The notes under the pieces were generated by a model. The model was not told where the DNA came from, ran no database searches, and worked only from the letters and a program-made list of their open reading frames with translations. Source: Macrostomum lignano (Eukaryota). From it: 64,000 nucleotides of DNA. The stretch is from NCBI GenBank assembly GCA_002269645.1, contig NIVC01001158.1, positions 28,814 to 92,813 of the forward strand, given 5' to 3'. Positions within the stretch are counted from its first letter, which is position 1. Each line of letters starts with the position of its first letter. A program made the position numbers and the translations under genes. Of this stretch, positions 1,529 through 35,383 are shown piece by piece.

Positions 1529-2748
1529 TAATATAAAAATGGGCTCAGTTAATGATGAAAATCGTCACTACTAAGCAACGGTAGATCCGTCGATTTTGGA
1601 GGTGGGGTGGGTGTCAACCCTCCTCGCCTCTCATTGGCTGGCGCCCCGATCACTAGGTGATCGATACCCGTATCGATATCGGCGCTCGGCGCGCGCGCGC
1701 CGCAGGCGCGTGGCGCCAAGCGCCGCAGGCGCACCTACCGATATGTACCGATATGTATGCTCACCCTACCGACATGTACCCCGATATGTACACCCTCCCG
1801 AGCCGCAGGCGCACCCTCCTGAGCCGCAGACGCCCATGCCGCAGGCGCCCTGAGTGTACACTCTCCCGAGCCAAAGGTACACTCTCCCCAGTACACTCTC
1901 CCGATATGTACACTCTCCACAGTACACTCTCCCGATATGTATGCATACACAGATATGTAGTCAACGATATTAGGCTAGTGAAAACTACTTATAGTAGGTG
2001 AAATTGAGTATATTTACATAAAAATGTAGATAAAACATATTGGTAGGTGAATAATGACGCATATTACATATTAAAATGTACATATTGGAGCATATGAGCA
2101 GCAAAAACACACAATGTAGGTGCATATTTGACAGAAATAGACAAAGCAGGTACTGTAAGCACTACATAGGTGGTAATACACACAGTATAAAGTAGGTTTA
2201 CAAAGTGTACTTTCGATACATATCGGATTAATGTATAAAGCGGGTTTACAAGGCATGCATATATCAGAAGGTGTAGTTGTATAATACAGGCGCGCATGTA
2301 TAATCAGATTATAGGCAAACGCCCAGGTGCAATTTCAACAGACGCGTAAATAATGTCACACCGACTAAAGAGTAAATATTGTCTAACCCGCAGGTGCATA
2401 AATATTAAACAAAAGCGGTTCGGGGAAATCCCAAAAGGGAGGTTTTAGCCGCCCGTTTTCGCCGCCCTAACCCTCTTATGGGTACAATTGCGTTGAAAAT
2501 ATTTCAAGTCATTAGGTTGTAAGACCCTCCATATTTTAGGTGGGTGGACTCGAGCCCGGGGCCAGCCCATTACAGTTTTTTGGGCCGGCCCCTCTGCCAA
2601 TTTCCTCCCTAGGTGCGAGCTATCAGAATTGGTCTTTTAACCCCCGTGTATACACACATAGAGGCCCCCAGCTAGCGTCCCATTCTAACCTACCCAGTGT
2701 ACAGTGTTGGGTTCCCCAAACCGCGTACAAAGAGAAATACCTTATCAG

Positions 2749-3705
2749 TCAATCTCCATACGCTCCCTCAGGGCTGTCTCGTACGCGGCCTCTTCCTCCA
2801 CGCTCTCGAAGCAGTAGTCGGATGACTGGCAATGTGGAAATTATAACAGTCAATGTAGATAGAATATAGGCAAGGTATATGATTAGATGAGTTGTGTATA
2901 CAGTGTAATATCTAACCAAACCTAAATCCTCCTCCAGCCGCCACAGGCGTAGAGACGCTGTATAGCGCACCAACGAAAGGTGCTCCTCCCAGTTGGTAGA
3001 CCGGATAGCAGTAGCTATCCGGACCGGATAGCAGACTGCAGGCTCATCCCACGCAGTCGGGCGCGCTCCCGGACCGGCCAGGTACGCCTCCGAGTCGGGG
3101 GCATACGAATTACGCCCTATTAGCCAATCCTGGTGTAGCGTCTCCGCCTCCAGCACCTCCCGCAGATCAGCCCCTCGGGCCACCAAAGTATCAAGAACCC
3201 GATTAAAGGCTCTGACAAAGGTGGCTTGGGAGGGCAGGCCGCCAGGGTGGCGAGACCTCAACCAGTCAATGTCCCCGCGGAAAAATGAGGCCACAATGCG
3301 AGGAAAGCGCTCACGAACCACGGCGATCTCCTCAGACATATCCTCGTCCTCATCGTCGAAGAGAAGGAGCGTAGAGGCTGATGATATTGAGGCCCGGTGG
3401 GAGGTAGTTGAAGCAGAGGCGGCAGCGGCAGAGACGGGCGCAGTAGAGACAGAGGCGGCAGCAGCAGCAGGGGCGCCGTTCACAACCCCGCCGATAGCCA
3501 GCAGCGGGAGGTCAAAAACTTCAGATTCGGTGTCGCTATCATAGGACATGGCCCAAGCTAGATATTGATCAGCCTCCCAATTATCGGTTCCGTTGTTTTC
3601 AGTGCCTAGGGGAACTATGTGTTCAGGGATATCACCCTCGAGGCTGGTTAACTCTTCAGTCGGGCGATTATTATCCCAGAGGTTGGATAGAGCTCGGCGG
3701 GCCAT
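2749..3705 (-). CDS. Orphan 318-aa protein (acidic/Ala-rich N-terminus); the 3' part may be spliced
   Basis: Intact ORF with TATATAA at 3774-3780 (-) upstream; an identical copy lies at 9943-10899 (+). No family recognised. Confidence 0.6.
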   Translation of the reverse strand: MARRALSNLWDNNRPTEELTSLEGDIPEHIVPLGTENNGTDNWEADQYLAWAMSYDSDTESEVFDLPLLAIGGVVNGAPAAAAASVSTAPVSAAAASASTTSHRASISSASTLLLFDDEDEDMSEEIAVVRERFPRIVASFFRGDIDWLRSRHPGGLPSQATFVRAFNRVLDTLVARGADLREVLEAETLHQDWLIGRNSYAPDSEAYLAGPGARPTAWDEPAVCYPVRIATAIRSTNWEEHLSLVRYTASLRLWRLEEDLGLVRYYTVYTTHLIIYLAYILSTLTVIISTLPVIRLLLRERGGRGRVRDSPEGAYGD

Positions 3706-3773
3706 GTTGGAATCAACAGAGAGTAAAGTATTAGAGCTAGGATAGGTTCGACTCTCCAGAGAGGAAACACTAA

Positions 3774-3780
3774 TTATATA
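3774..3780 (-). promoter_or_regulatory. TATA box of the 318-aa ORF (mirror copy at 9868-9874 +)
   Basis: TATATAA about 70 bp upstream of the ATG. Confidence 0.55.
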
Positions 3781-3816
3781 GACGGATCGAGTGAGGCGGT
3801 GCGAACCAATAGGAAA

Positions 3817-4350
3817 CTAGCAGTCCCAACCCTCGTTATACAGATTTTCCCAGGGCGGAGATTGGTAGGGTTTGAGACCCACAAGCTGAAGAACATCCTC
3901 CTCAGTCCTGGCTACCGGAGGCGTGTCTGTCTTGACTCGCTTGGCTGGAGGGGGTGCCTCAGGTGCCGGCTTGAAGAGCTTGTCCAAACGGGCGGCAAAC
4001 ATCCGGCGCCACAGTTCAGGCGTGAATTCGATCGTGTAGCGCCAATTAAACTTTGGGTCCTGATTGAGCCAATTGCGCAGCAAACGGATCCTCCCTCGCG
4101 AAGCTTCAACTGCCTTGAAATTGCCCAACAGGACCCGCTTGTTCACGTGAAGGCGGGCAGCAGCCTCCAGGTCAGGGCGCGCAGCTTCGAGCTTCTTCCA
4201 CTCTGGCTCGCTCAAGTAGATTGCAGGGAAGCCGTCCTTCCACACTCCGGCCTCGTTGGTGTAGAGACGCCGAATTTCAATCAAGTTGTGTTCAGTTTCA
4301 AATGTGGGCTTCCGCGCCACAAAGTTTTCGTATAGAGAGATAGAAGACAT
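3817..4350 (-). CDS. Tandem PC4-like ssDNA-binding protein, 177 aa
   Basis: IEIRRLYTNEAGVWKDGFPAIYLSEPEWKKL follows the PC4 pattern (DIRxxY...G...G-I-L-xxEWxxL). A second degenerate copy reads IRLLRNWLNQDPKFNWRYTIEFTPELWRRM, followed by a basic PPAKRVK tail. TATATAA lies at 4397-4403 (-). Confidence 0.7.
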   Translation of the reverse strand: MSSISLYENFVARKPTFETEHNLIEIRRLYTNEAGVWKDGFPAIYLSEPEWKKLEAARPDLEAAARLHVNKRVLLGNFKAVEASRGRIRLLRNWLNQDPKFNWRYTIEFTPELWRRMFAARLDKLFKPAPEAPPPAKRVKTDTPPVARTEEDVLQLVGLKPYQSPPWENLYNEGWDC

Positions 4351-4396
4351 GATTTAGCAGCAGCAGCAGAGAGCTCTCTGACAGCCGTGCAGCGCC

Positions 4397-4403
4397 TTAT
4401 ATA
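4397..4403 (-). promoter_or_regulatory. TATA box of the PC4-like gene
   Basis: TATATAA about 47 bp upstream of the ATG at 4350. Confidence 0.55.
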
Positions 4404-4591
4404 CCCCCGGATGGAGGGTGGGGTGGGTGATGATTTTGGGGGGTGATTTTTGATGATTTTGGTTGGTTTTTGGTGATTTATCCAATAACAGGCGAGCTGA
4501 GCAGATTTTTTAGTACATATACAGACCCCCCAGAGCCAGGGTAGAGAGATAATCCTTCTCTCTCCGCTCTCTCACGCTCTCTGTTTGCAAA

Positions 4592-7500
4592 ATGGCTAAA
4601 CGCAGCGCCACCGCAACTGCTTTCCTGGCTGACAAGAGGCAACGTCTTTATGGTAAGTTTTAATTAATTTCTGACCGTCTAGGCTAGACTGTAGTTGCTA
4701 GGGTGGGGGGTACTGCGGCACGGGGTGAGCTGCTGCGACAGCTGCAGGGTCTGTGGGACCGCAGAGTAAACAACAAAGACTGTCACTGCTGCGACAGCTG
4801 CGGGGGTCTAGACTGGAGTTGCTAGGGTGGGGTGCAGATAAGAAATTGGCAGGGTCTGTAACAGAGAGTTGCAGGGGAGGGCTAGACAAGTTTCAGCCGG
4901 GTTAGCAGCAGCAGCAGCTGCAGGGTCTGTGGGACAGCAGAGTAAACAAAGACTGGGGCCTCGGGTGGGGTGTTGTCTAGACAGGGAGGGGTGTGCGGCA
5001 GCTGATAAGAAATTGCTGCAAAAAACAGAGAGTTGCTAGGATGCTGCGGCAGAGTACTGATAAGAAATTGGCGTGGTCTGTAACAGATAATCGTTGGGGC
5101 GGGCTAGACAAGTTTCAGCCGGGTGGGGGGCAGAGAGTTGCTGGGACTGTGTAGCGCGGGGGCAGACTGATAAGAAATTGGCAAGGGCTGTCTAGACAGG
5201 TTGCAGCTAGGTGCAGATAAGAAATTGCTGCAAAAAACAGAGAGTTGCTGTGGGAGGGGTGCTGCAGAGTAAACAACAAAGACTGGAACTGCTGCGACAG
5301 AGGGTTGCTGGGGCCAGGAAAATGACAGATTCTTCTGGTTTTTTTTTATCTCCTTGTGTTTTTTCAGACGCGTTTGTCCCGCCAACACAGCCGGAATCTG
5401 TTACCGGACCGGGTGAGTTATCCAGCCCCCCATTTCCCACACAGACCCGGGCTGACTCACACTCCCCCATTCCCCCCATGCAGGTTTTACGGCCCGGCTG
5501 GATAATCAGCGCGAGCTGCCCAAGTTTAGGGCAAAGGGCGTCGAGTATGTGGTGCGTATTACCAACACCGAAGATTTGCGGGAGCTGTTTGTCGACATGC
5601 TCGAAGTTTTCAAGCAAGATTTGGCAGGCGAGGATTTCATGGCTGCGAAATTCGAGAGCGACAATATGCTCAAAGCAGCCCATACTCCCCCGGTGCGTGC
5701 AGCCCGCATGACGGCTGAATTATTATTCAAGCACATTGACAAGATTGTGCAGTCGGATGCCACTGTATTGTCAGGCAACTTTTCTATCCGCCTGCTAAAA
5801 GCCTGGGTACCTCGAGGTGGCTGCGCCCTCGAGAACAAACATGTAGAGGAGCGCCACGCCTTCTCCAAGCACTATGTCCGCATCACCAACTCGGACAAGA
5901 GATGCCTGCTGCGAGCGCTTGTTGTCGCATGCGCCTACCTGCAATTTGTGGTCAAGTCCATCACCGAGCGGCTGTGGCGCACGATCAAGGCCAATTCGCC
6001 CACGCAGACTAAGCTGGTGGCTGAGCTACAAATCGAAGCGGGCCTCTACACGGTAAGTTTATAGTATTTTCATGGATTACTAAAAGAATTTTTACGATAA
6101 GGAATACTAAAAGATATATTTTCTGATAAGAATTTTTACGCAGTATCATGGAATACTAAAAGAACCATACTCTGATAAGAATTTTTACGATAAGGAATAC
6201 TAAAAGAATTTTACATAGTATCAGGGAATACTAAAAGAAATATTTTACCCCCACACAGACTCTTCAAACCGTCTCGCAGGCCGGTCCTTTCGGGGTGGAT
6301 GCACTGTCCGAAGCGATCCGTGCCCTGAACCGGCTGCATCCAGGCCATGATTTCGGTGTACGAGTGTACCGGGCAGAGGAGGCCAACAGGTGCATCTTCA
6401 ACCTGCCTGGCACCGAGATTCTGCACCTGCACCTGATTGAGCAGCACTTTAATGTGGTTACAAAGCTGCCTGCGTTTTTCGGCTCCGATCACTACTGCCC
6501 CAAGTGCGAGATGGCCTACGACTGCGCCAACGCCGAGCACAAGTGCGCTGATGCCTGCAGTACATGCAAGACTCCGGGCTCCAACTGCAAGCATAACCGC
6601 GCATGTGAGATGCCATGATTGCGGGCTAAATTGCTATAATGCTCAGTGCCTAGAAAATCACAAGCGCAAGAATAAGGCGGGCAGATCGCGCTGCGATTCA
6701 GTCCACGTTTGCGGCACGTGTGGTTATCTAGAAGAACTAAAAGTAGGCCAGCCCCCTGAGCATCAGTGCCGTTACGCAAAGTGTCCAGTCTGCAAGCAGT
6801 ACGACGAAACGGCCACCCACGAGTGCTTTGTCACCCCGCCCAAAGCCAAAGAGTCTAGCGCCCCGTATGTTTACTATGATTTTGAGACGTACGTGGACTC
6901 TGGCAAGCAGCACCGGGTACACTTGGTTACGGCTGCCACCTCCTGCGAGGCGTGTCCCAAACTCTTCCCCAGGCCCCGCTGCAGCGTGTGCGGGGGACTA
7001 CACAGCTCAGCCAATTGCATTGCGGGACGCAATCTGGCGCTGGATTTTACGAGCTGTGTCTCGCACAATGACTGTGCCTGCGGGATGCGAGAGTTTGTAT
7101 CTGTCGGGCCGCACTCTATCGATGCCTTTTACTGCTGGCTGACTAGTGTGTTCAAGCAGGGGGCAATTGCATTTGCGCACAATGGCTCTGCGTATGACGC
7201 ATTCCTCCTGCTCGGCGCCCTACTCAACGGACTGGCCAAGAAGAAGCCCCAAGTGATCTTCCAGAACAGCAACCTAATGTACATGAAGTGCGACAAGATC
7301 ACGTTCAAGGACAGCCTCAACTTTATCCCTATTGGTCTGGCGCAATTCCCAAAGGCGCTTGGTTTGGGCACACAACTGACCAAAGGAGATTTCCCGCACG
7401 TGTTCAATCAGCCTCAAAATTGGGGGTACGTAGGTCCCTACTGCTCAATTGATATGTACGGCGGGAAGAAGAATAAGCAGCACGACTCCATCGCCGACTG

Positions 7501-8202
7501 GCTGGCCAAGCAGGAGGGCAAAGTGTTTAATTTTAATAAGGAGTATCTGGACTATTGCCTGCAGGACACGCTAATTTTGCGGGAAGGCTGCCTGAAATAT
7601 ACCCGCCTGATTAAGGACATTTGCGGACTGGACGCATTTGTCCAATCCAACACCATTGCGGGCTTGGCCATGGCTGTATTCACCACCAAGTTTATGGAGC
7701 CCAACACTCTTGGGGTGATTTCCCGCCGGTCGGATGTACAGTCGCACAAGGCGCGGTGCTGGCTGGCACATTTGAATGCAACCGAGTTTGGCGGCCGGTT
7801 GCGGACAGCCGACTCTGGCGGCGAGGCTTTCGCCATGGGCCGTAAGGTGGACGGTTTCGACCCGGAGACCAGGACAGTGCTGCAGTTTCATGGCTGTTTC
7901 TTCCATGGCTGTCCCAAGTGCTTCCCCAACGGTGACGTGCTGCACCCGCTCAAGAACCAGCCAATGCGGGCAATTTATGAGGAGACTGAGCGCTTCACCC
8001 GGCTGCTCTCCACTGCATACAATGTACGTGTTCTGTGGGAGCACGACTATCAGGGCGAGGGAGCGCCAGTCCAGCAGCCTATACGCCTGGAGGAAGCCCT
8101 GTTTGGCGGCCGTACCGAGGCTTTTGTCCCGCACGCCGAGGCCACCGAGACTGTAGAGCTGCGCTATCGGGATGTGGTACACACTGTGGATGTGGTACAC
8201 TT

Positions 8203-8236
<34 letters not shown>

Positions 8237-9225
8237 GACATGCGTTTGAGTTTATCTTATCCTCTAATTCTCTATTATCCTTATTATATTATATTATATT
8301 ATCCTTATACTTATCCCTAGGTGTCGCTCTACCCGACTGTCAACAAGTTTGACAAGTACCCTGTCGGGCACCCGGTTCACCACCCCGTGCCTCATCTACT
8401 GGATGAGCAGCAGCTGGCCCGGTATTTTGGTATCGCTGAGGTGTCGATTCTGCCGCCAACCAATCTCCACATTCCGCTACTGCCCGCCAAGATTAGCAAG
8501 AAGCTGGTTTTCGGCCTCTGCCGCGTCTGCATGGAGACCCAGTGCAGCAGCGAGTGTACACACACTGACGCTGAGAGAATGCTCCGCGGCACGTGGTCGA
8601 CCCCAGAGCTCCACAAGGCCCTGCAGTTGGGTTACAAGCTGCAGTCAGTTCATGCCCTGGCCTATTGGACCGAGACTCGCACGGGTTTGTTTGCAGATTA
8701 TGTAAACACTTTTTTGAAGCTCAAAGCCGAGTCTAGCGGTTCGCCGGGGATGACTGAGGACGCCAAGGCTGCCTACATGGCCAGCTTTTTCGAGCGCGAA
8801 GGCCTCCGGCTTGAAAAGGTGGAAGAAAATCCCGGCCTGCGCCTTGTGGCCAAGATTTTTCTAAACTCGTAAGTTTTTCTACTTGCAGTGGGGCCGTGTT
8901 TTTCTACTTACAGTAGCCAGATATACAAAAATTTATTTTTCCCTGCAGGCTCTGGGGCAAATTCTGCCAGCGCGACGACCTGACCTCCACAGAGATTGTG
9001 GACAGCTACGAGGCGTGGCTGCAGCGCCTGACAGACCCCTCGATCAAGGTCAAGTCGTGCGAGCCAATTGGGGAGAGCTTTATGATGCTCGAGTACAAGC
9101 CCCGATTTGGCGGTGCTGGCGAACGGGCATTCAAGTACGCTAATGTACCTATTGGCGTTTTCACCACCTCCCACGCCCGGCTGCGACTCTACGAGGCTCT
9201 GGAGGGTCTAGGAACCCGAGTCATT
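4592..9225 (+). pseudogene. Protein-primed family B DNA polymerase with 5 spliceosomal introns; truncated before motif C; one frameshift (~6598)
   Basis: Exons 4592-4652, 5368-5412, 5484-6052, 6280-8176, 8321-8868 and 8949-9225 are all bounded by GT..AG and phase-compatible. Motifs: C/H dyad (SDKRCLLRA...EQHFNVV), zinc fingers, ExoI YVYYDFET, ExoII AHNGSAYD, ExoIII YCLQD, nuclease-like insert VDG..FHGCFFHGCPKC, motif A DV|VSLYP, motif B KIFLNS|LWGKF. The YxDTDS motif is absent. Confidence 0.92.
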
Positions 9226-9494
9226 CCGGGCCTCAATATCATCAGCCTCTACGCTCCTTCTCTTCGACGATGAGGACGAGGATATGTCTGAGGAGATCGC
9301 CGTGGTTCGTGAGCGCTTTCCTCGCATTGTGGCCTCATTTTTCCGCGGGGACATTGACTGGTTGAGGTCTCGCCACCCTGGCGGCCTGCCCTCCCAAGCC
9401 ACCTTTGTCAGAGCCTTTAATCGGGTTCTTGATACTTTGGTGGCCCGAGGGGCTGATCTGCGGGAGGTGCTGGAGGCGGAGACGCTACACCAGG
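9226..9494 (+). repeat. 269-bp internal copy of part of the 318-aa ORF (=10251-10519; reverse complement of 3129-3397)
   Basis: Direct comparison; the segment joins the truncated polymerase to the right arm. Confidence 0.9.
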
Positions 9495-12096
9495 CCTTCA
9501 CGTGAACAAGCGGGTCCTGTTGGGCAATTTCAAGGCAGTTGAAGCTTCGCGAGGGAGGATCCGTTTGCTGCGCAATTGGCTCAATCAGGACCCAAAGTTT
9601 AATTGGCGCTACACGATCGAATTCACGCCTGAACTGTGGCGCAGGATGTTTGCCGCCCGTTTGGACAAGCTCTTCAAGCCGGCACCTGAGGCACCCCCTC
9701 CAGCCAAGCGAGTCAAGACAGACACGCCTCCGGTAGCCAGGACTGAGGAGGATGTTCTTCAGCTTGTGGGTCTCAAACCCTACCAATCTCCGCCCTGGGA
9801 AAATCTGTATAACGAGGGTTGGGACTGCTAGTTTCCTATTGGTTCGCACCGCCTCACTCGATCCGTCTATATAATTAGTGTTTCCTCTCTGGAGAGTCGA
9901 ACCTATCCTAGCTCTAATACTTTACTCTCTGTTGATTCCAACATGGCCCGCCGAGCTCTATCCAACCTCTGGGATAATAATCGCCCGACTGAAGAGTTAA
10001 CCAGCCTCGAGGGTGATATCCCTGAACACATAGTTCCCCTAGGCACTGAAAACAACGGAACCGATAATTGGGAGGCTGATCAATATCTAGCTTGGGCCAT
10101 GTCCTATGATAGCGACACCGAATCTGAAGTTTTTGACCTCCCGCTGCTGGCTATCGGCGGGGTTGTGAACGGCGCCCCTGCTGCTGCTGCCGCCTCTGTC
10201 TCTACTGCGCCCGTCTCTGCCGCTGCCGCCTCTGCTTCAACTACCTCCCACCGGGCCTCAATATCATCAGCCTCTACGCTCCTTCTCTTCGACGATGAGG
10301 ACGAGGATATGTCTGAGGAGATCGCCGTGGTTCGTGAGCGCTTTCCCCGCATTGTGGCCTCATTTTTCCGCGGGGACATTGACTGGTTGAGGTCTCGCCA
10401 CCCTGGCGGCCTGCCCTCCCAAGCCACCTTTGTCAGAGCCTTTAATCGGGTTCTTGATACTTTGGTGGCCCGAGGGGCTGATCTGCGGGAGGTGCTGGAG
10501 GCGGAGACGCTACACCAGGATTGGCTAATAGGGCGTAATTCGTATGCCCCCGACTCGGAGGCGTACCTGGCCGGTCCGGGAGCGCGCCCGACTGCGTGGG
10601 ATGAGCCTGCAGTCTGCTATCCGGTCCGGATAGCTACTGCTATCCGGTCTACCAACTGGGAGGAGCACCTTTCGTTGGTGCGCTATACAGCGTCTCTACG
10701 CCTGTGGCGGCTGGAGGAGGATTTAGGTTTGGTTAGATATTACACTGTATACACAACTCATCTAATCATATACCTTGCCTATATTCTATCTACATTGACT
10801 GTTATAATTTCCACATTGCCAGTCATCCGACTACTGCTTCGAGAGCGTGGAGGAAGAGGCCGCGTACGAGACAGCCCTGAGGGAGCGTATGGAGATTGAC
10901 TGATAAGGTATTTCTCTTTGTACGCGGTTTGGGGAACCCAACACTGTACACTGGGTAGGTTAGAATGGGACGCTAGCTGGGGGGCCTCTATGTGTGTATA
11001 CACGGGGGTTAAAAGACCAATTCTGATAGCTCGCACCTAGGGAGGAAATTGGCAGAGGGGCCGGCCCAAAAAACTGTAATGGGCTGGCCCCGGGCTCGAG
11101 TCCACCCACCTAAAATATGGAGGGTCTTACAACCTAATGACTTGAAATATTTTCAACGCAATTGTACCCATAAGAGGGTTAGGGCGGCGAAAACGGGCGG
11201 CTAAAACCTCCCTTTTGGGATTTCCCCGAACCGCTTTTGTTTAATATTTATGCACCTGCGGGTTAGACAATATTTACTCTTTAGTCGGTGTGACATTATT
11301 TACGCGTCTGTTGAAATTGCACCTGGGCGTTTGCCTATAATCTGATTATACATGCGCGCCTGTATTATACAACTACACCTTCTGATATATGCATGCCTTG
11401 TAAACCCGCTTTATACATTAATCCGATATGTATCGAAAGTACACTTTGTAAACCTACTTTATACTGTGTGTATTACCACCTATGTAGTGCTTAGAGTACC
11501 TGCTTTGTCTATTTCTGTCAAATATGCACCTACATTGTGTGTTTTTGCTGCTCATATGCTCCAATATGTACATTTTAATATGTAATATGCGTCATTATTC
11601 ACCTACCAATATGTTTTATCTACATTTTTATGTAAATATACTCAATTTCACCTACTATAAGTAGTTTTCACTAGCCTAATATCGTTGACTACATATCTGT
11701 GTATGCATACATATCGGGAGAGTGTACTGTGGAGAGTGTACATATCGGGAGAGTGTACTGGGGAGAGTGTACTGGGGAGAGTGTACCTTTGGCTCGGGAG
11801 AGTGTACACTCGGGGCGCCTGCGGCATGGGCGTCTGCGGCTCAGGAGGGTGCGCCTGCGGCTCGGGAGGGTGTACATATCGGGGTACATGTCGGTAGGGT
11901 GAGCATACATATCGGTACATATCGGTAGGTGCGCCTGCGGCGCTTGGCGCCACGCGCCTGCGGCGCGCGCGCGCCGAGCGCCGATATCGATACGGGTATC
12001 TATCACCTAGTGATCGGGGCGCCAGCCAATGAGAGGCGAGGAGGGTTGACACCCACCCCACCTCCAAAATCGACGGATCTACCGTTGCTTAGTAGT
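9494..12096 (-). repeat. Right inverted arm of the inner element (2603 bp)
   Basis: Reverse complement of 1567-4154; carries a 5'-truncated PC4-like ORF (9502-9831) and a full copy of the 318-aa ORF. Confidence 0.95.
9943..10899 (+). CDS. Second copy of the orphan 318-aa protein
   Basis: Identical translation to 2749-3705. Confidence 0.6.
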   Translation: MARRALSNLWDNNRPTEELTSLEGDIPEHIVPLGTENNGTDNWEADQYLAWAMSYDSDTESEVFDLPLLAIGGVVNGAPAAAAASVSTAPVSAAAASASTTSHRASISSASTLLLFDDEDEDMSEEIAVVRERFPRIVASFFRGDIDWLRSRHPGGLPSQATFVRAFNRVLDTLVARGADLREVLEAETLHQDWLIGRNSYAPDSEAYLAGPGARPTAWDEPAVCYPVRIATAIRSTNWEEHLSLVRYTASLRLWRLEEDLGLVRYYTVYTTHLIIYLAYILSTLTVIISTLPVIRLLLRERGGRGRVRDSPEGAYGD

Positions 12097-13147
12097 ATCG
12101 TCTTTATTTTATAGGAGAAATAGTAGACACCTTAAATTTAGATGATAACAAACATAGTCACTCAATGTTAAAAAGATTAGATCGTTTAGGTAAAAAATTG
12201 GATTATGATATTGATACTTTTAAACTCGCTGCAAAATATGCACAAGAAGGAAGACCCATTTCATTTAAGCACAACCGTAAAACCTATAGGCTAACAGATT
12301 CTGATGTAAAATTTTTAATGGAGAGTCACATAAAAAGGGATGGTGGATTACTACCCTTTCTACCAATCCTTTTAGGACTTGGGGCAGCAGGAGCAGCCGG
12401 TTTAGCAGGCAAAAGGATTCATGATAACCGAAAACAGTGAGCAAAATTAAAAGAAAAACAAGGGGGCATACTTCCACTTGCAACTTTGCTCCCAATAATT
12501 TTTGGAGGAATTGCCGCGGCTGAAGGAGTCGCTGGTGGAGCGGCTGGAGTTGCAAAAGCAGTAAATGACAAAAAAGCTGCGGATGAAAAAGCTAAACGAG
12601 ATGCAGAATTTCAAAGACAGCAAATAACGCAGGACGCACAATTCAAACAAAAACTTATAGACACAATTAATAGTAGTTCAGCAACACCAGAACAAAAAAA
12701 ATGCAGAAGCTAGGTTAGCAGCCGGAAAAGGTTTAATTTTAAAAGGAACAACTCACGGTGAGGGTTTAATCTTGCAAGGAATGACCCACGGAAGCGGAGT
12801 TGTCGCAGACAAATTTCATGAATTCGGTCAAACCTTGGAAAAACCGGCGAAGAAGCTAAAGGATTTTTCGACAATATCGGAGCTAATTTTAGACCTGCGG
12901 TTCAGAAAATTTTTAATAAATTAGGAAAAGATTTTAACATAATTAAAAAACATGACGGAAGCGGATTATATCTCGAAATGCGACCAAAAGCAGGTTCAGG
13001 AATCTTCTTAAATGCAAACGTTATGGGTAGTGGCTTACTGTTACCAAAAGCGGAACTCGAATAAGCTCCTGTGGGGAGGGTCAGGATGCCCAAAACATAA
13101 AATTAAAAAACCAATAATTCAAACATTGTATAAATTTTATTCTATAA

Positions 13148-14390
13148 AATGGAAATATTTTAGCTCAAATCGACAACCCAGAACTTAGAGCTCAATTAAT
13201 AGCTCAAATCAAAGCACAACGAATTGCCGATAGGGCGGAAATAGAAGCTAGAATTAGAGCAGAAAATGAAATCAATTTACAAACACAATTAGATATTATC
13301 GAACAAACAGCATCACCACCAGCGAATGGTGCTGAAATAATAAATATTAATATTGATATGAATACAGATTATAAAGAATATTTTAAACAAATGAAAGAAA
13401 AATTAAAGACCGTATTAGACGAATATACTATGAGACAAAATAACAAACGGCAGCCAGTTAGGTATAAAATTGAAATTGAAACAGAATTTAAAAAACCAAA
13501 TATGATAAATGCAATTTCAGAAATTGAAGTAATAAATACCTTTTCACAAGAATCATATAAGTCACTTTTATCAATGGGAACATATACCAAACAATTTGAT
13601 AATATCGAAGCAGAGTTTGATAAATGGATTGATAAGATGACAGAAAACGGATCAGGCTTCATTTTTGTTTCTTATAACTCAGCCACAGTAAAGATTGTTC
13701 CTATTGAAGTTCTTCGAGGACGATCACATATGGATCCAGGATTTACATCTCCCATGATCATAAATCCCAACAATGAAGATGATAAGTGTTTATTATGGTG
13801 TTTACTAATTCAAAAATATCACAAACAAGTAAAATGGCATGTAAATAAAATATATTATTAGAGATTATGTGGATGAAATAATAATGAAAGACATATCCTA
13901 CCCAGTATCCATAGATGATATATATAAGATTGAAAAAATGAATGGGTTAAATATTAATGTATTTTCAATTGAACAGCCAAACGATTGGGTTAAAGCACAC
14001 GATAAAGAATGATATAAAAAAAAGATGTTTTCTTATTAAGCCAGCAACTGATATAACAGCACCAGACCAAATCGATTTATTGTACATACAGCATGAAAAC
14101 AATACACATTATATATACATAAAAGATATTTGTTCCTTATTAAGAACAAATGGAAATAGAATGCCAATATGTAGAAATTGTTTCACATTTAAAAAGAATG
14201 AAAGTGCTCTTAAAAACCTAATTATTTACTAATGTTGTAATGCCCAATGAAAAAGAACAAATATTAAAGTTCCAACAACATTTTATGGCAATTAAAAAAC
14301 CAATTGTAATATATGCTGATTTTGAAGCATCAAACATACCCCTCAAATGTCCTAAACAACAAGATACGGCTGAATGTACAAAAAATTAGC
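13148..14390 (+). pseudogene. N-terminal part of the outer element's pPolB (terminal protein / OTU-like region to ExoI), frameshifted and truncated
   Basis: ENGSGFIF...LRGRSHM...IINPNNEDDKCLLWCLL...YPVSIDDIYKIEKMNGLNINVF...IDLLYIQHENNTHYIYIKD...CRNCF...KPIVIYADFE. The sequence breaks shortly after ExoI. Confidence 0.85.
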
Positions 14391-14948
14391 TCAACAGCTC
14401 AACAACAACGGGAACTATGTTTGTATTAAGGTAATTAATAAGAGCAGCGGTATCTGCGCCGGCTGCTGGTGCTATGGTAGGAAAATTTATTGCTCCACCA
14501 TCTCCCTTATCGGGCATCCATCCAACATTATCACCAACCTGTTTTGATAAATAAGTATAATTTAAATGTTTAAGAACTCCATTAATCTCTGCGGGGTTTG
14601 TTGATGTCTCAACCTCAGCTCCGTTAATTCTTAGTTGCGCTTGGGAAAAACATTTATAAAACCAATCTTTCTCGATAACAATACCAGAACGATCGGCTAT
14701 ATCGCCGGCCGCAAGAGCTGTTCCGTCATTTCGTGTATATAAGCATCTAACACGGAAAATGCGTTTAGTTGCATTAGTATCGTATTAGTTGCACCAACAT
14801 CAAAAGTTACCGTTCCGGTAGTAAAATTGTTTGAATTATCGCTTGTTGGTAGGGTATAATTTAAATCTTTTGCCCTGACCTCATTGATATATTGCCGTGG
14901 TTTTTTGAAATAATACTTATCACTCCATCTGTTTTTTGTTTCAGCCAT
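14388..14948 (-). pseudogene. N-terminal fragment of the Polinton major capsid protein (double jelly-roll)
   Basis: With one frameshift it reads MAETKNRW...TVTFDVGATN...YTRNDGTALAAGD...WFYKCFSQAQLRINGAEVETSTNPAEINGVLKHLNYTYLSKQVGDNVGWMPDKG, resembling Polinton MCP N-termini; the C-terminal part is missing. Confidence 0.7.
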
Positions 14949-14982
14949 TTTTTTAAGTTAAAAAAGTTTTTTATGTTAAAAA

Positions 14983-15660
14983 ATGAGTCAATTTATGGAT
15001 GTTGATGGTGAATTAGCGATTTATAAAGAGAAACAAAGATATTCTGATTTTGTTAGGGATTTACAAAAAAGAAAGTTAGGAATACAGTTAGCTGGTGAAA
15101 GATTTGCTGCTCCTTTTGTTAATCCTATTACGGGGAAAATTAGTGAATTAACAAAAACTGATAAAGAGCTTCTTGAAAAAATTGCTAAGAATACGGAGCC
15201 AAAAGAGGAAGATGTAATTGAGGATGAACCGCCCGCTTATGATGTTGATCAAGCACAATTGAGAGTTGCAGAGATTAGGGCTGCAGAACTGGGTGGTAGG
15301 GAACAATATCAGAGAGCTTCTCCACAAAGTATTAGCGTGACGGATTTAGATAATGATAATTATCGAATTGGTGGGGTTGATAAAAATCGGAATGAGCTAT
15401 ATAGAGAATTGGGTGAAGCATATAATATTATTATGAACCCTAGAGTAAAGTTTAATCCTGATTTATATACTGTGGATGAATTAGTAAGTGCTAAATTTTT
15501 TTATGATGAGTTAGGAGTAGGGGGTGTTAAAAACACTAGTTTGTATAAAAGGATTGATCAATCAATAAATAACAAACGAGCTGTTGGCGAAGGATTTAAA
15601 ACTCCACGAAAACTTGTTTTAGCCGCTGCCAAAGCTGCTGGACATACAGGAATTATTTAG
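14983..15660 (+). CDS. Polinton conserved protein, probably PZ-like, 225 aa
   Basis: FAAPFVNPITGKISEL near the N-terminus and GEGF...LVLAAAKAAGHTGII at the C-terminus resemble Polinton PZ-type proteins; assignment from memory. Confidence 0.45.
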   Translation: MSQFMDVDGELAIYKEKQRYSDFVRDLQKRKLGIQLAGERFAAPFVNPITGKISELTKTDKELLEKIAKNTEPKEEDVIEDEPPAYDVDQAQLRVAEIRAAELGGREQYQRASPQSISVTDLDNDNYRIGGVDKNRNELYRELGEAYNIIMNPRVKFNPDLYTVDELVSAKFFYDELGVGGVKNTSLYKRIDQSINNKRAVGEGFKTPRKLVLAAAKAAGHTGII

Positions 15661-15684
15661 ATGTTAAATTTATTTTTTCATAAA

Positions 15685-16316
15685 ATGGAAACTAAAAAGA
15701 TCTGTAGTAGATGTAAAGAAGAGAATTTTTTGCTTGAGTTTAGATATAGAATAACCCAGAATCGATATGAAGGTAATTGCAAAGAATGTGGGAAATTTTA
15801 TCAAAAAGAATATTTGCTATCCTCGATATTATGCTGAAAATAAAGAAAAAATTATAGAGAAAGTTAATATATGCACAAAACAATAAAGAAAAAGTTAATC
15901 AATATAGAAAAACAAGATATAGTGAAGATGAAAATTTCAAACTTATTGTAAACACGCGAACTAGAATAAATAAACTATTAAAATCAACTAATGGTCAAAA
16001 AGACAACCATACTATTTATTATCTTGGTTGCCCAATTGAATTCTTTAAAGATTGGTTAAATTTCACCAAACATTATTATTTGCCAAAAGATTATATTGGT
16101 GTTTTGCATGTGGATCATTTTATTCCTGCTTCATCTTTTGATTATCGCAATGAGGAACAAATTAAAAAGTCGGAACATTGGACAAATAAAAGATACCTAG
16201 CTGCTATGGATAATAAAACTAAATTTGTTAAAAAACCAACAATTAAAGAATTTGCAAAACAATTAGTGTTAACTTGTATTTTTAAGGCTATTAAAAATGA
16301 GCCAACTTTTGTTTGA
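15685..16316 (+). pseudogene. Free-standing HNH endonuclease with N-terminal zinc finger, frameshifted
   Basis: METKKICSRCKEE...CKEC; FKLIVNTRTRINKLLK...YLGCPIEFFKDWL; LHVDHFIPASSFD...EQIKKSEHWTN...DNKTK. This matches the HNH family common in large dsDNA viruses. Confidence 0.8.
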
Positions 16317-17040
16317 AGGTGGATTTTTAGATGTTCAAAAAGGACTAACAGGCTTACCACCAATCTTTACTACTGGAAAATATACTGGGGAACTACACCT
16401 ACCATCAATGAACTTCACAGGTTAACCCGTGGCCTGAGTGGTAGAAGCAAAGCTACTGCTAGTCACTATTTGTGGCGACACCTTCAAATTGCGTGAAACC
16501 CGTCATACAGCTTCAAGTACCACTTCAATTGAGAAATCTTTTGAAGGAACAGAGGTAACTCCTCTTCCCAAAGGTAACAAGCTTGAAGACATGGTGACAA
16601 TGCGCAGTCAAGCTCCTAAGTATAAAAGTATAAGGAGAAGGTTCAGAGAGCAGACGGAGGTGGGTGGTAATTTAACCGCTTAAGGTGTGCTCCAGCCTCT
16701 TTCGAAAGATTGAGGGCAAACTACCCGGGACTAGGCTGGATTTGAGATTAAATCCTGATGATACTCCAAAAGCTGATTCAATTCCCATCAATGGTATTGA
16801 TTGGTTAGCATATTATCATGACTTAGCATACAGAGATGCTGACAAGAATTCTCCTGAGGAAGCATAAGATTAAAGCATGAAGCCGATAGAAAAATGATTG
16901 AAGGATTAGATAATTTACAGGGATTATCGGTAAGCCAGAGATTAACTCGGTGGATGGTTAAAAAGATCTTGCAATCTAAAGTGAAATTTGGTTTGGGAAT
17001 TAATTACAATCAACATGAAAATAATTGTGTAGAGTGTTTG
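16297..17040 (+). pseudogene. Parvovirus-VP1-like phospholipase A2 (PLA2) gene, split by a group I intron
   Basis: After removing 16423-16723 it reads GELHLPSMNFTG|PGTRLDLRLNPDDTPKADSIPINGIDWLAYYHDLAY (Ca-loop GPG and catalytic HD), followed by ADRKMIEGLD...ILQSKVKFGLG. There are two frameshifts (~16345, ~16865). Confidence 0.85.
16423..16723 (+). ncRNA. Group I self-splicing intron, subgroup IC1, no internal ORF
   Basis: The 5' exon ends in U16422, paired to G16432 (P1: CAGGT/GCCTG). P10 pairs CCCGTG 16426-31 with exon CCCGGG. P2 and P2.1 are present. P3 is CACCTTC 16479-85 / GGAGGTG 16656-62; P4 is TGCGTG 16490-95 / TGCGCA 16601-06. P5abc has a GAAA loop and an A-rich bulge (GGTAACAAGC). 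The CCTAAG...TAAGG receptor is in P6. P7 is GAGCA 16648-52 / TGCTC 16688-92 with bulged A16647. P8 is present, and P9 has a GAAA loop. Confidence 0.92.
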
Positions 17041-17049
17041 TTATTAAGT

Positions 17050-17884
17050 GGTGGTGGGTTAAGTTCTGATGAGGCAAAGGTTCTTCACAAAGAATACCGA
17101 AAGCCTAAATTTTATAGAAAAATCATTAACTTCAAAAAGAATGAAATTTGATATGCTGATTTAATGTCAATGCCGAACGAAAGAGGATATAAATATATCT
17201 TAACCATACTGGATAGTTATATCTGGATATATCTTACTCGAAATGCGTGGCTGTTCCTTTGAAATCCAAAAAAGGAGAGGAGATTGCCGCTGCTTTTAAA
17301 AATCTTAGAGAAAAAAGTGATAGGTTGTGTGTTGATGAAGGAAAAGAATTTTACAATCATCATATGTATAAATTGTATCATTTTGAAAAAGGAAAAGAAA
17401 GGAAAAAAGACGCGAATGGTGAGTATATTAATAAAATTTATTCTATTTATGGAGAAAGCAAAAACGCACTGATTGAAAGAGTTAATCGAACTTTAGGTAA
17501 GAAATTGTGGTTTCAGTTTAGTATTAATGGTAACCAAAAGTGGGTAAAAATATTACCAGACGTTGTGAAAGATTATAATAATTCATATCATTCAGCTATA
17601 AAAATGACTCCTCAACAAGCTATAACACTCCTGAAAATGTTAAAGTCACTTTTGGAGAGTTTGAAAAAAAGAAAACTAAAGGTTTTAAAGTTGGTAATTC
17701 TGTTTATATTTATAAATGGAAAGATAAGTTTGAAAAGGGAAGAAAAGGATATTGGAAGATAAGTGAGAAATTTACCATCAGTAAAGTTTTAAATACAAAT
17801 CCTACAACCTATATCATTGCTGATAAAGATGGTGAAGAAATATTGGGTTCCTTTTATGAGAACCAGATAATATCTGCGAACTAA
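17050..17884 (+). pseudogene. Retroviral-type (rve, DDE) integrase of the outer element
   Basis: LHKEYRKPKFYRKII...(W>stop)YADL...GYKYILTILD...AWAVPLKSKKGEEI...VDEGKEFYN...LIERVNRTL...YNNSYHSAIKMTP...FKVG...PTTYIIADKDGEEILGSFYENQI; several lesions. Confidence 0.92.
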
Positions 17885-18092
17885 GTTCGTACAATTACTT
17901 AAGGCAACAGGGTAGTAAATTTTTTATAACAAAGAAAAACAATATTATTACTAATATAATTATTGGCCGGCACGTTTCCGATATAGGAATAATCATGAAA
18001 AGCATGCGTATCATTGATACGATTTACCTTCATTTTTTTAAATATATTTTTCACAATAAATGTAGTTTCTGTTACTGAGTAATAATTCATTT

Positions 18093-18407
18093 TTACATAA
18101 AAATTTCAATTTCATTCTCCGAGTCACTAGTTTCATATGAACTATTTGTTGACTCGGAATCAGTTGAACGAACCTCCCAATCGTCTGAATTTAAATAATC
18201 TCCAAGTTGAAATATTAACTCACCCGCTCGTTCTAGATCATACAAACCATCCAAATCTAACGGATAAAGTTTTAGATCTTTTTTGTCATCATATTTTAAA
18301 TATACTTCATCAATTATTCCATTCAAAATATGCTGTTTTATAATCTCTGAATTTTTAGCAACAGTCTTAAAAGTATCACTAACTGAAAAGGTGTAAACTC
18401 GGTTCAT
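18093..18407 (-). CDS. Hypothetical acidic protein next to the right TIR, 104 aa
   Basis: Intact ORF in an AT-rich element; no family recognised. Confidence 0.35.
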   Translation of the reverse strand: MNRVYTFSVSDTFKTVAKNSEIIKQHILNGIIDEVYLKYDDKKDLKLYPLDLDGLYDLERAGELIFQLGDYLNSDDWEVRSTDSESTNSSYETSDSENEIEIFM

Positions 18408-18422
18408 TTTCGTAACAGAAAA

Positions 18423-18506
18423 AGACCCTTTGCGCCTGCGGCGCTGGCGACGGGTTAGAGAGTGTTTGTGTGTGTTTGGATGTAGTAGTATGTAAAAGTA
18501 CGCTTC
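18423..18506 (-). repeat. Right terminal inverted repeat of the outer Polinton (may extend toward the gap)
   Basis: Reverse complement of 1-83. Confidence 0.9.
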
Positions 18507-18633
18507 TAGATCAGATCCTATTGAAACAATGGATTTGAAGGGCTAGAGGGGGGACATGGGGGTTTGATTTCTGATGTGTGGATTTGATTGGGTGTGTTAA
18601 TAGTGTTTTTGATTAAATGGGGTTATTGGGGTA

Positions 18634-33916: not shown

Positions 33917-34641
33917 GGTTAGGGTTTGGCTAGGGTTTGGTTAGGGTTTGGCTAGGGTTTGGCTAGGGTTTGGTTAGGGTTTGGTTAGGGTTTGGTTAGG
34001 GTTTGGATAGGTTTCGGTTAGGGTTTGGTTAGGGTTCGGTTAGGTTTTGGTTAGGGTTCGGTTAGGGTTTGGTTAGGGTTTGGTTAGGGTTTGGCTAGGG
34101 TTTGGTTAGGGTTTGGTTAGGGTTTGGATAGGGTTCGGTTAGGGTTTGGTTAGGGTTTGGTTAGGGTTTGGTTAGGGTTCGGTTAAGTTTTAGTTAGGGT
34201 TCGGTTAGGGTTTCGTTAGGGCTTCGTTAGGGTTTGGTTAGGGTTTGGCTAGGGTTTGGTTAGGGTTCGGTTAGGGTTTGGTTAGGGTTTGGTTAGGGTT
34301 TGGTTAGGGTTAGGGTTAAGGTTTGGTTAAGGTTTGGTTAGGGTTTGGTTAGGGTTTGGTTAGGGTTTGGTTAGGGTTTGGTTAGGATTTGGTTAGGATT
34401 TAGTTAGAGTTTGGTTAGGGTTTGGTTAGGGTTCGGTTAGGGTTTGGTTAGGGTTTGGTTAGGGTTTGGTTAGGGTTAGGGTTAAGGTTTGGTTAGGGTT
34501 TGGTTAGGGTTTGGTTAGGGTTTGGTTAGGGTTTTGTTAGGATTTGGTTAGGATTTAGTTAGAGTTTGGTTAGGGTTTGGTTAGGGTTTGGTTAGGGTTT
34601 TGTTAGGGTTTGGTTAGGGTTTGGTTAGGGTTTGGTTAGGG
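33917..34641. repeat. Telomere-like 11-bp array (TTAGGGTTTGG)n
   Basis: Each unit contains TTAGGG; there are occasional pure TTAGGGTTAGGG doublets. Confidence 0.9.
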
Positions 34642-35383
34642 TCAAACTGGGCCAGTTAACAGCCGGAGACTCTATAGTTTTTTACTATTAAAGACCCCTT
34701 CAGCTTAGTTTTGAAAGAAATACTTTTTTATATTAATGAATTTTTTTCAAATTTATTGATGAAAAACTGCAATGCAGGCAAAATAAGAATATTCATATTT
34801 TTTCTGGCAAATTTATGGCCTAAAATTTATTATCCTCACTGGGTAAGGTAATATGATTATAACTCATGACAGACGATTCGCCACTATGAAATATGCTCAT
34901 ATCTAAGCTCTAGTTAGTTTTTCTTTTTGCATAAAAGACATGCACGGCGATCCAACATTAGCCTAATAATTGCTTGACCAAATTCAATGAAGTCCTGAGT
35001 TGAACTCAAGCTTGTTTGCGAATGTGCTTTTCAAGGAAAAACAGAGAGGGTTATTATAATAGCTGGCTAATCGAAATTCAGCAGGTAAAAACGGATTAAG
35101 AGAAATTTTTATTTTTAGATGAATTGTCGGCTAATGCATTTCGCTTCCGTACCTGACAGAACCAAAAGGACTGTAGACCTCTGCTGGTGCTAATGCACTC
35201 CCATGAGAGCCAGTTATTTGCACGGGTAGTGCCATGCATTACAGCTGCAAGGAAAATACGACAGGGTCAAAATAAGACTTTGAACAGTTAGAAGAAAGGT
35301 TTGGGGACTTCTGCGTGTCTTCTAAGGGAAGTTGCCAGGATTTTTGAGGGGTACCAGGCCGGGCTTTTGCACCAGAGGCTTCA

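Follow-up and report, generated by a model that had tools for sequence, protein, structure and literature searches.

The element examined in this study lies in a 64,000-nucleotide stretch of the genome of the flatworm Macrostomum lignano (GenBank assembly GCA_002269645.1, contig NIVC01001158.1, positions 28,814 to 92,813 of the forward strand; hereafter the window) and carries the gene of a family B DNA polymerase that is primed by protein, of the kind found in Polintons (Mavericks). Judged by gene content and termini, this polymerase segment and a separately inserted capsid segment of the same genome probably constitute a bipartite Polinton, the halves of which would complement each other in trans. 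The polymerase gene is interrupted by true spliceosomal introns, and in copies of the family the catalytic motifs A, B, and C are each split by one of them.

Two segments with complementary genes and matching termini

The copy of the polymerase segment in the window belongs to the first of two lineages, A and B, and is bounded as follows:

1561..1566, left target-site duplication ATCGTC, 6 bp
1567..12096, lineage-A polymerase segment, rearranged copy, 10,530 bp, with ends ACTACTAAG ... CTTAGTAGT
12097..12102, right target-site duplication ATCGTC, 6 bp

These ends are of the ACTAC...GTAGT type and not of the AG...CT type. Polymerase segments of lineage A span 8.7-9.7 kb, with a perfect 6-bp duplication in 23 of 24 end pairs; those of lineage B have the ends ACTACGTA and span 9.5-10.4 kb, with a clear duplication in 6 of the 10 pairs examined. 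Neither integrase nor capsid genes were found inside polymerase segments.

Bases 10-25 of the ends (1576-1591 and 12072-12087 in the window) are hypervariable and modular, and they lie between stretches of fixed sequence. Among 24 end pairs, 17 distinct 16-mers were found, and both ends of a copy were identical in 19; lineage B behaves alike.

The first capsid segment was reached through unpaired ends; it has B-type ends, the duplication CTTGAT, and a length of 10.9 kb. Its frames encode an integrase, minor- and major-capsid-like proteins, a protease-like protein, and an ATPase, and no polymerase. A search with this integrase, in which the best 114 of 1,600 candidates were scored, found two groups in the genome, one 91-100% identical with B-type ends and one 72-82% identical with A-type ends. 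Ten loci fetched from both groups had the same gene order and gave no polymerase match. Capsid segments measure 10.2-10.9 kb, have ends matching those of polymerase segments, and carry their genes as single frames. A 6-bp duplication was present in 11 of 13, a count in which a single insertion appears twice. The integrase lies within 12 of the 13 A-type capsid end pairs, and 10 of these 13 pairs are 10.35-10.57 kb long.

The integrase matched PF00665 above the cut-off (E 2.5e-8). The major-capsid-like protein of 427 amino acids was nearest to double-jelly-roll-like (DJR-like) clusters (Atlas 0.98), in which PF21738 was found on 14-30% of members. The ATPase was supported by PF04665 on 17 of 32 homologues; a genome search with PF04665 returned no match although ATPase genes exist, so that this search is insensitive in this genome. 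The protease-like frame has an H-D-Q-C motif (His-Asp-Gln-Cys), which we take to be that of the adenovirus-type protease family, and the minor-capsid-like frame had a weak match (25% identity, E 3e-5) to an unannotated frame. A Fic-like frame, below the cut-off, was observed in capsid segments of lineage A (L212:1930-2709). Additionally, records in ENA, Logan, and JGI (P0185-P0187, P0195-P0200) include capsid and ATPase proteins with about 80% identity to each of the two lineages; these probably represent a third lineage or a related host species.

Lineages A and B each include both polymerase and capsid segments. No polymerase-segment gene was found in 24 capsid loci, and the search for capsid-segment genes in 59 polymerase loci gave one match, outside the element. 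The 101 polymerase and 56 integrase places had three contigs in common, where the two were never less than 44.5 kb apart. Complementary essential genes are thus found on two segments with matching termini, the pattern by which a bipartite virus is recognized. The terminal 15-mers follow the lineages: of five taken from A capsid segments, four were found again in polymerase segments of lineage A and none in those of lineage B, and of four from B capsid segments, two were found again in B polymerase segments and none in A ones. Since these 15-mers are hypervariable, their presence on both segments within a lineage suggests a continuing exchange. One A polymerase segment and one A capsid segment are identical over 45 terminal bases, while each kind of segment has its own inner repeat sequence.

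Structure and conservation of the polymerase gene

The polymerase gene in the window copy consists of the following parts, all on the + strand:

4592..4652, exon 1
4653..5367, intron 1, phase 1, with internal repeats
5368..5412, exon 2
5413..5483, intron 2, phase 1
5484..6052, exon 3, probable terminal-protein region, then the start of a vOTU-like protease domain
6053..6279, intron 3, phase 0, with two in-frame acceptors (6258 and 6279) 21 nucleotides apart
6259..8176, exon 4, end of vOTU, Cys-rich region, and exonuclease, up to motif A
8177..8320, intron 4, phase 0, within motif A (DV|VSLYP), with a CA tract at 8205-8233
8321..8868, exon 5
8869..8948, intron 5, phase 2, within the Ser codon of motif B (KIFLNS/LWG)
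8949..9225, exon 6, ending right before motif C

The domain names of exon 3 were inferred from 10.1101/2024.03.18.585575 together with known motifs. PF03175 matched 6437-8176 (E 5e-15) and 8321-8869 (E 5e-13), and motifs A, B, and C of a protein-primed family B polymerase are present in family copies.

A sequence-only reading of this stretch had proposed five GT...AG introns, two of them inside motifs A and B, and had pointed to internal repeats and a CA tract. The letters themselves bear out the five introns at the coordinates above, as well as the repeats (introns 1 and 3) and the tract (intron 4). The introns are real, and their count fell short, for other copies have a sixth within motif C. 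The compatible phases held for the introns and not throughout the window copy, in which exon 4 changes frame near 6600 and meets a stop at 6616. The intron-4 donor of this copy is GTACAC, in contrast to GTAAGT in all 32 other copies (19 of 19 in an earlier set), and the gene ends at 9225, where a 269-nucleotide piece of arm sequence takes over, so that intron 6 and exon 7 are missing. The window copy of the gene is therefore damaged by frameshift, altered donor, and truncation.

A DNA search of the genome gave 41 rows from the best 40 of 103 candidates, and a search with exon 5 found 126 matches among 134 candidates; these matches fell into two groups, of about 95% (lineage A) and about 70% identity. 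Among 32 lineage-A loci, the GT-AG boundaries were kept in 32 of 32 for introns 4 and 5, in 30 of 30 for introns 1 and 3, and in 27 of 30 for intron 2, where three one-base boundary slips were seen; intron lengths drift freely among these copies. Intron 6 lies within the Ser codon of motif C (YxDTDS) and was GT-AG in 31 of 32 loci. Motif C followed by the donor had 87 matches in the genome against none for the control, and an intron-less motif C had no match in the genome. Of 30 copies with all seven exons, 11 are without stop or frame change over about 1,270 codons. For exon 4, the ratio of non-synonymous to synonymous differences (pN/pS) was 0.10 in 91 pairwise comparisons among 14 copies of equal length, to which the analysis was restricted. 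The polymerase is under purifying selection.

Two polymerase segments (L042 and L043) had their 5' half swapped for palindrome-type sequence and kept introns 4-6 and the 3' exons.

Splicing of the polymerase introns

Splicing was examined in assembled contigs of four sequencing runs from three studies, which are presumed to be RNA. Introns 2, 4, and 5 were each skipped in contigs of all four runs and intron 1 in two of the four. Intron 3 was skipped in all four to the acceptor at 6258 (6053-6258); the start of this intron as first proposed thus stood, and its end at 6279 did not, the acceptor there being backed by the loose end of one run (reading into 6280) and by lineage B. The 21-nucleotide stretch between the two acceptors was found in 28 of 32 copies. 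The check by junctions that had been suggested for all five introns, including those in motifs A and B, thereby turned out in their favor.

In a second copy, the exons on either side of introns 4, 5, and 6 are joined in a contig of 1,631 nucleotides from run X12, and introns 1 and 2 were skipped in runs X3 and X12 (two of four). Runs X15 and X18, which are evenly deep over the introns, gave no GT-AG joint among the joints listed. Both spliced and unspliced forms of intron 6 are present in contigs. The spliced contigs differ from the window copy at many places; as that copy is also damaged, they stem from other copies of the family. Independent runs cover the whole polymerase segment. With GT-AG boundaries, removal in probable RNA, presence in DNA, and freely drifting lengths, the intervening sequences are true spliceosomal introns.

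Age of the introns and their position in the catalytic motifs

Lineage B is about 65% identical to lineage A over the exon-4 part, with synonymous sites saturated. Its introns occupy the same six positions in the same phases as those of lineage A and are unrelated to them in sequence, which bears out the suggestion that the gene has long depended on host splicing, and the comparison of intron positions across copies that had been proposed for it showed GT-AG kept in nearly all lineage-A copies and the positions common to lineage B. Intron 4 of lineage B is mostly 81 nucleotides long, in frame, and free of stops. Frames of about 867 codons in lineage B were at one point taken as intron-less, and this was rejected, as they read through the in-frame 81-nucleotide intron.

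Comparisons were made by single exons, and in a quick tree of one exon piece, lineages A and B formed one clade (SH-aLRT 100) on a long stem, from which another polymerase of the same genome (L098) fell away. The latter (L098:6637-8731) is decayed and AT-rich, has no introns at motifs A and B, and is about 35% identical. The nearest outside polymerases are 35-39% identical. The motif-C intron position was searched for elsewhere, and none of 36 pattern matches (28 metagenome and eight viral) was near a polymerase, in collections that are poor in animal DNA. Among viral contigs, a single-exon query found no related locus; an alignment query found four distant loci, and none of the three examined had a capsid or integrase context. 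Those three are intron-less at motif A, and so is the one reaching motif B at that motif.

The introns were likely gained before the split of lineages A and B. The favored account of their persistence in the motifs, given about an even chance, is that imprecise loss there would destroy the enzyme. When introns were placed at random, 42 of 2,000,000 trials put one into each motif, a count that is post hoc and depends on motif widths chosen by the analyst. A somewhat less probable account takes the motif introns as a switch, acting through regulated splicing (e.g., in stem or germ cells), or as a shield from host silencing. Besides the rarity of the placement, it would suit the confinement of introns to the polymerase gene, the in-frame and stop-free intron 4 of lineage B, and the two forms of intron 6. 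However, a single intron with a stop, if retained, would suffice to block the enzyme, the donors are strong consensus sites, and persistence where imprecise loss is lethal accounts for the pattern without regulation.

The introns are mostly unlike each other: in three of 15 pairs the similarity was above that of nearly all shuffles, weakly. By comparison within the element and with lineage B, they do not show the many near-identical young introns of an introner origin. Being fixed in all three catalytic motifs, these introns offer a clean case for the question of intron persistence at the most conserved sites.

A probable bipartite Polinton and alternative explanations

By gene content and ends the pair resembles one Polinton, and neither half fits the definition of a single element. 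The description as an intron-rich Polinton given by the sequence-only reading was not supported in its usual sense, since only the polymerase gene has introns, its element is without integrase or capsid, and the integrase and capsid genes, each an uninterrupted frame, lie on another element whose ends match.

In the proposed mechanism, the polymerase mRNA would be made by host RNA polymerase II and the spliceosome. The precursor would be ordered as terminal protein, vOTU, exonuclease, and palm, as in Polintons according to 10.1101/2024.03.18.585575. Any segment with ACTAC ends would be primed there by this precursor and copied as linear DNA, while the PC4-like protein described below would coat the strand that is displaced. 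If the two ends pair, this would account for the variable 16-mer that is usually identical at both ends of a copy. The integrase of the second segment would insert either segment, and palindromes as well, and its ATPase and capsid may package units of 9-11 kb singly, which their common size would fit. More tentatively, and with a probability below even, the system could be a multipartite double-stranded DNA virus of animals, with segments that are integrated, copied, and packaged separately in a capsid sized for about 10 kb, a splicing-dependent polymerase, and palindromic satellites of equal size that use the same ends.

Non-coding palindromes of 7-10 kb with the same ends occur in both lineages (L025:330-9589, L027:676-8810, L118-L127), and in lineage B a 6-bp duplication was present in 10 of 10. 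It is possible that they are copy-back satellites and sources of hairpin RNA, in which case they would be parasites of the segments' machinery. One locus (L218-L219, G000:C56:643541-661960) has capsid-segment ends around a palindrome-type interior, and the segments and satellites seem to swap ends.

Several points weigh against a bipartite Polinton. The only grounds for complementation are the common termini and the gene content, and the evidence for transcription covers only the polymerase segment; the runs behind it are presumed RNA and not recorded as such, and the joints listed for the second copy are all but 19 of those obtained. Broken copies make up 19 of the 30 with all exons, some perhaps by assembly error. 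The capsid-like protein had no match by sequence in Pfam or PDB, its fold being putative, and many lineage-B polymerase segments are without the PC4-like gene (matches in two B loci). Bases 26-40 of the B capsid ends are like those of A polymerase ends and not like B's, so the pairing is not strict. At four-fold sites, A and B have diverged by comparable amounts in the two segments (0.53-0.62 versus 0.57-0.71); this speaks for the pairing, but as these sites are near saturation, it is a weak test of co-divergence. With 114 of 1,600 candidates scored in the integrase search and with gaps in the assembly, an element of full length may have gone unnoticed. Finally, an abundant AT-rich Polinton (best 150 of 914 candidates scored) could supply integrase or polymerase.

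An unlikely alternative is that the halves are reciprocal deletion derivatives, passengers of a Polinton of about 20 kb that persists in some worms or as a free virus. The two do sum to about 20 kb and to one full Polinton gene set, the searches give lower bounds, and the family rearranges readily (the window copy, L029, and the palindromes). In contrast, no joined locus was found among the 101 polymerase and 56 integrase places, and six larger end pairs (14-22 kb) held nested retroelements, palindromes, or other inserts, none with both gene sets. The split is also repeated in two deeply diverged lineages, each kind of segment has its own inner repeat, and the polymerase segments are under purifying selection. 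Larger end pairs considered as full-length elements were rejected at C126, C538, C200, C694, C1486, C56, and C4, and likewise for parts of C485 and C583 (C221 and C2210 were left out).

Still less probable is that the segments are two independent half-parasites of the AT-rich Polinton, one borrowing its integrase and the other its polymerase, with shared ends that reflect ancestry only. The AT-rich family is far more numerous, its ends are also A.TA.TA-like (AGTAGTA), and both the window copy and L040 sit inside an AT-rich Polinton; as a helper it was the first reading, displaced once ACTAC-ended integrase elements were found. However, the ends differ (AGTAGT versus ACTAC), and terminal 15-mers are common to polymerase and capsid segments within a lineage. 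A flank test of low sensitivity, in which even L040 was not recovered, gave one weak match in 103 flanks and no clear target preference.

It is very improbable that segments and palindromes arose as artefacts in the assembly of long inverted repeats: the window copy and L029 are rearranged differently and single-base frame breaks are common, but perfect 6-bp duplications with different flanks occur at dozens of loci, segment lengths are uniform, and independent runs cover the whole polymerase segment; an artefact may lie behind the window copy's own rearrangement, the only place where this account could still apply.

Comparison with known systems

Polintons/Mavericks (adintoviruses) resemble the pair in the family B polymerase, which is protein-primed and begins with a terminal-protein and a vOTU-like region, the rve integrase, the ATPase gene, the putative protease-like and major and minor capsid-like genes, the terminal inverted repeats, and the 6-bp duplication. 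They differ in that the integrase is on the same element as the polymerase, while here it is on a separate one. Polintons are described as one element of 13-25 kb in 10.1101/2023.08.22.554363, in contrast to two separately inserted elements of 9-11 kb each. Their core genes are described as intronless in PMC8097293 and 10.1101/2022.07.12.499685, whereas the polymerase here has six introns. According to PMC8097293, the genes of vertebrate Mavericks number eight, lack introns, and form two modules on a single element, ends starting with AC are known from one fish, and the ACTAC...GTAGT ends correspond to none of the three vertebrate end motifs. In nematode Polintons, core genes are intron-less and cargo genes have introns (10.1101/2022.07.12.499685); polymerases are exchanged among these elements, and a large survey retained polymerases only if they were linked to an integrase (10.1101/2023.08.22.554363). 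As the polymerase examined here is neither integrase-linked nor an open frame, it fails both filters of such surveys, and the whole class may be invisible to them. The earlier warning that searches by open reading frame would miss the gene was thus justified, and it extends to integrase-linked searches.

Bidnaviridae are alike in having a Polinton-derived protein-primed family B polymerase and two segments with matching termini (PMC8502044). However, their capsid has been replaced and is not of the double-jelly-roll type, their vOTU is inactivated (10.1101/2024.03.18.585575), and they are single-stranded (PMC4061559). Their capsid is parvovirus-like, and they have no integrase. Here, what would be a full Polinton morphogenesis module, integrase and a DJR-like protein included, makes up the second segment, and both segments integrate. 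Maverick-polinton-like elements of dinoflagellates also contain spliceosomal introns (10.1101/2025.03.18.643946); those are young repeated introners, whereas the introns here are old, conserved in position across lineages, and mostly dissimilar. In the portion available of PMC12220804, "bipartite" refers to networks and the introns are of group I, and those of PMC6431247 and 10.64898/2026.10.13.758929 hold nothing on segmented Polintons. In the literature covered, with Repbase and most subscription papers outside its scope and sources available in part, neither a segmented Polinton nor Polintons of Macrostomum lignano were found described.

If true, a bipartite Polinton would mean that replication and morphogenesis modules, which are known to be exchanged between Polintons, can live as separate genome segments. 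It would outline how segmented viruses, bidnaviruses for instance, could come about, and would serve as a natural test of the reasons for which genomes split. With many recent, transcribed copies, this laboratory flatworm would allow particle formation by animal Polintons and splicing control to be examined.

Polydnaviruses have segmented double-stranded DNA with proviral segments in an animal genome and are domesticated, replication-deficient symbionts of wasps. Unlike them, the element here has retained a polymerase of its own and moves into new sites. Family B polymerases can carry inteins in their motifs A, B, and C, which home by an endonuclease and splice as protein; in contrast, the intervening sequences in the motifs here are spliceosomal introns of 65-120 nucleotides with no coding capacity.

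Other features of the window copy and its insertion site

The remaining features of the segment and its surroundings are as follows:

1567..4154, left arm, 99% mirrored by 9494-12096
2749..3816, - strand, frame of 355 codons, function unassigned, with a second copy at 9832-10899 on the + strand
3817..4350, - strand, gene of a PC4-like, probable single-strand DNA-binding protein, head-to-head with the polymerase
9226..9494, inverted copy of 3129-3397 at the rearrangement joint, 269 nucleotides
9494..12096, right arm, the inverted left arm, with a 5'-truncated PC4-like frame
12103..18630 and 1-1560, decayed AT-rich Polinton of another family, the insertion site, with ends AGTAGT
17217-17762, integrase remnant of the AT-rich Polinton

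Typical lineage-A copies mirror only the outer 0.2-0.9 kb. The PC4-like protein (Atlas lead score 0.86) matched PC4 with E 0.04 in the window, and its lineage-B homologue, 44% identical, was over the PF02229 cut-off (E 1.7e-6). The 355-codon frame occurs in part of the family and matched no Pfam family. A dUTPase (PF00692, E 2e-28) was observed in some lineage-B polymerase segments, for example at L062:5376-5837. Besides the polymerase and these three, no further gene was found in polymerase segments.

The AT-rich Polinton has canonical AGTAGT ends and a PLA2-linked integrase. It is itself inserted in a lineage-A-like polymerase segment (L060:6446-8901), which makes a nesting of three levels with the window segment. 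On another contig, L029:2193-9102 represents the same insertion with the same flank, rearranged differently and without the polymerase, either in reality or as an assembly artefact. Elsewhere in the window, a frame of 994 codons at 38285-41269 (- strand) had no Pfam match and is possibly transposase-like, and 66 copies of the 11-mer GGTTAGGGTTT, which contains the telomere motif TTAGGG, occupy 33917-34642.

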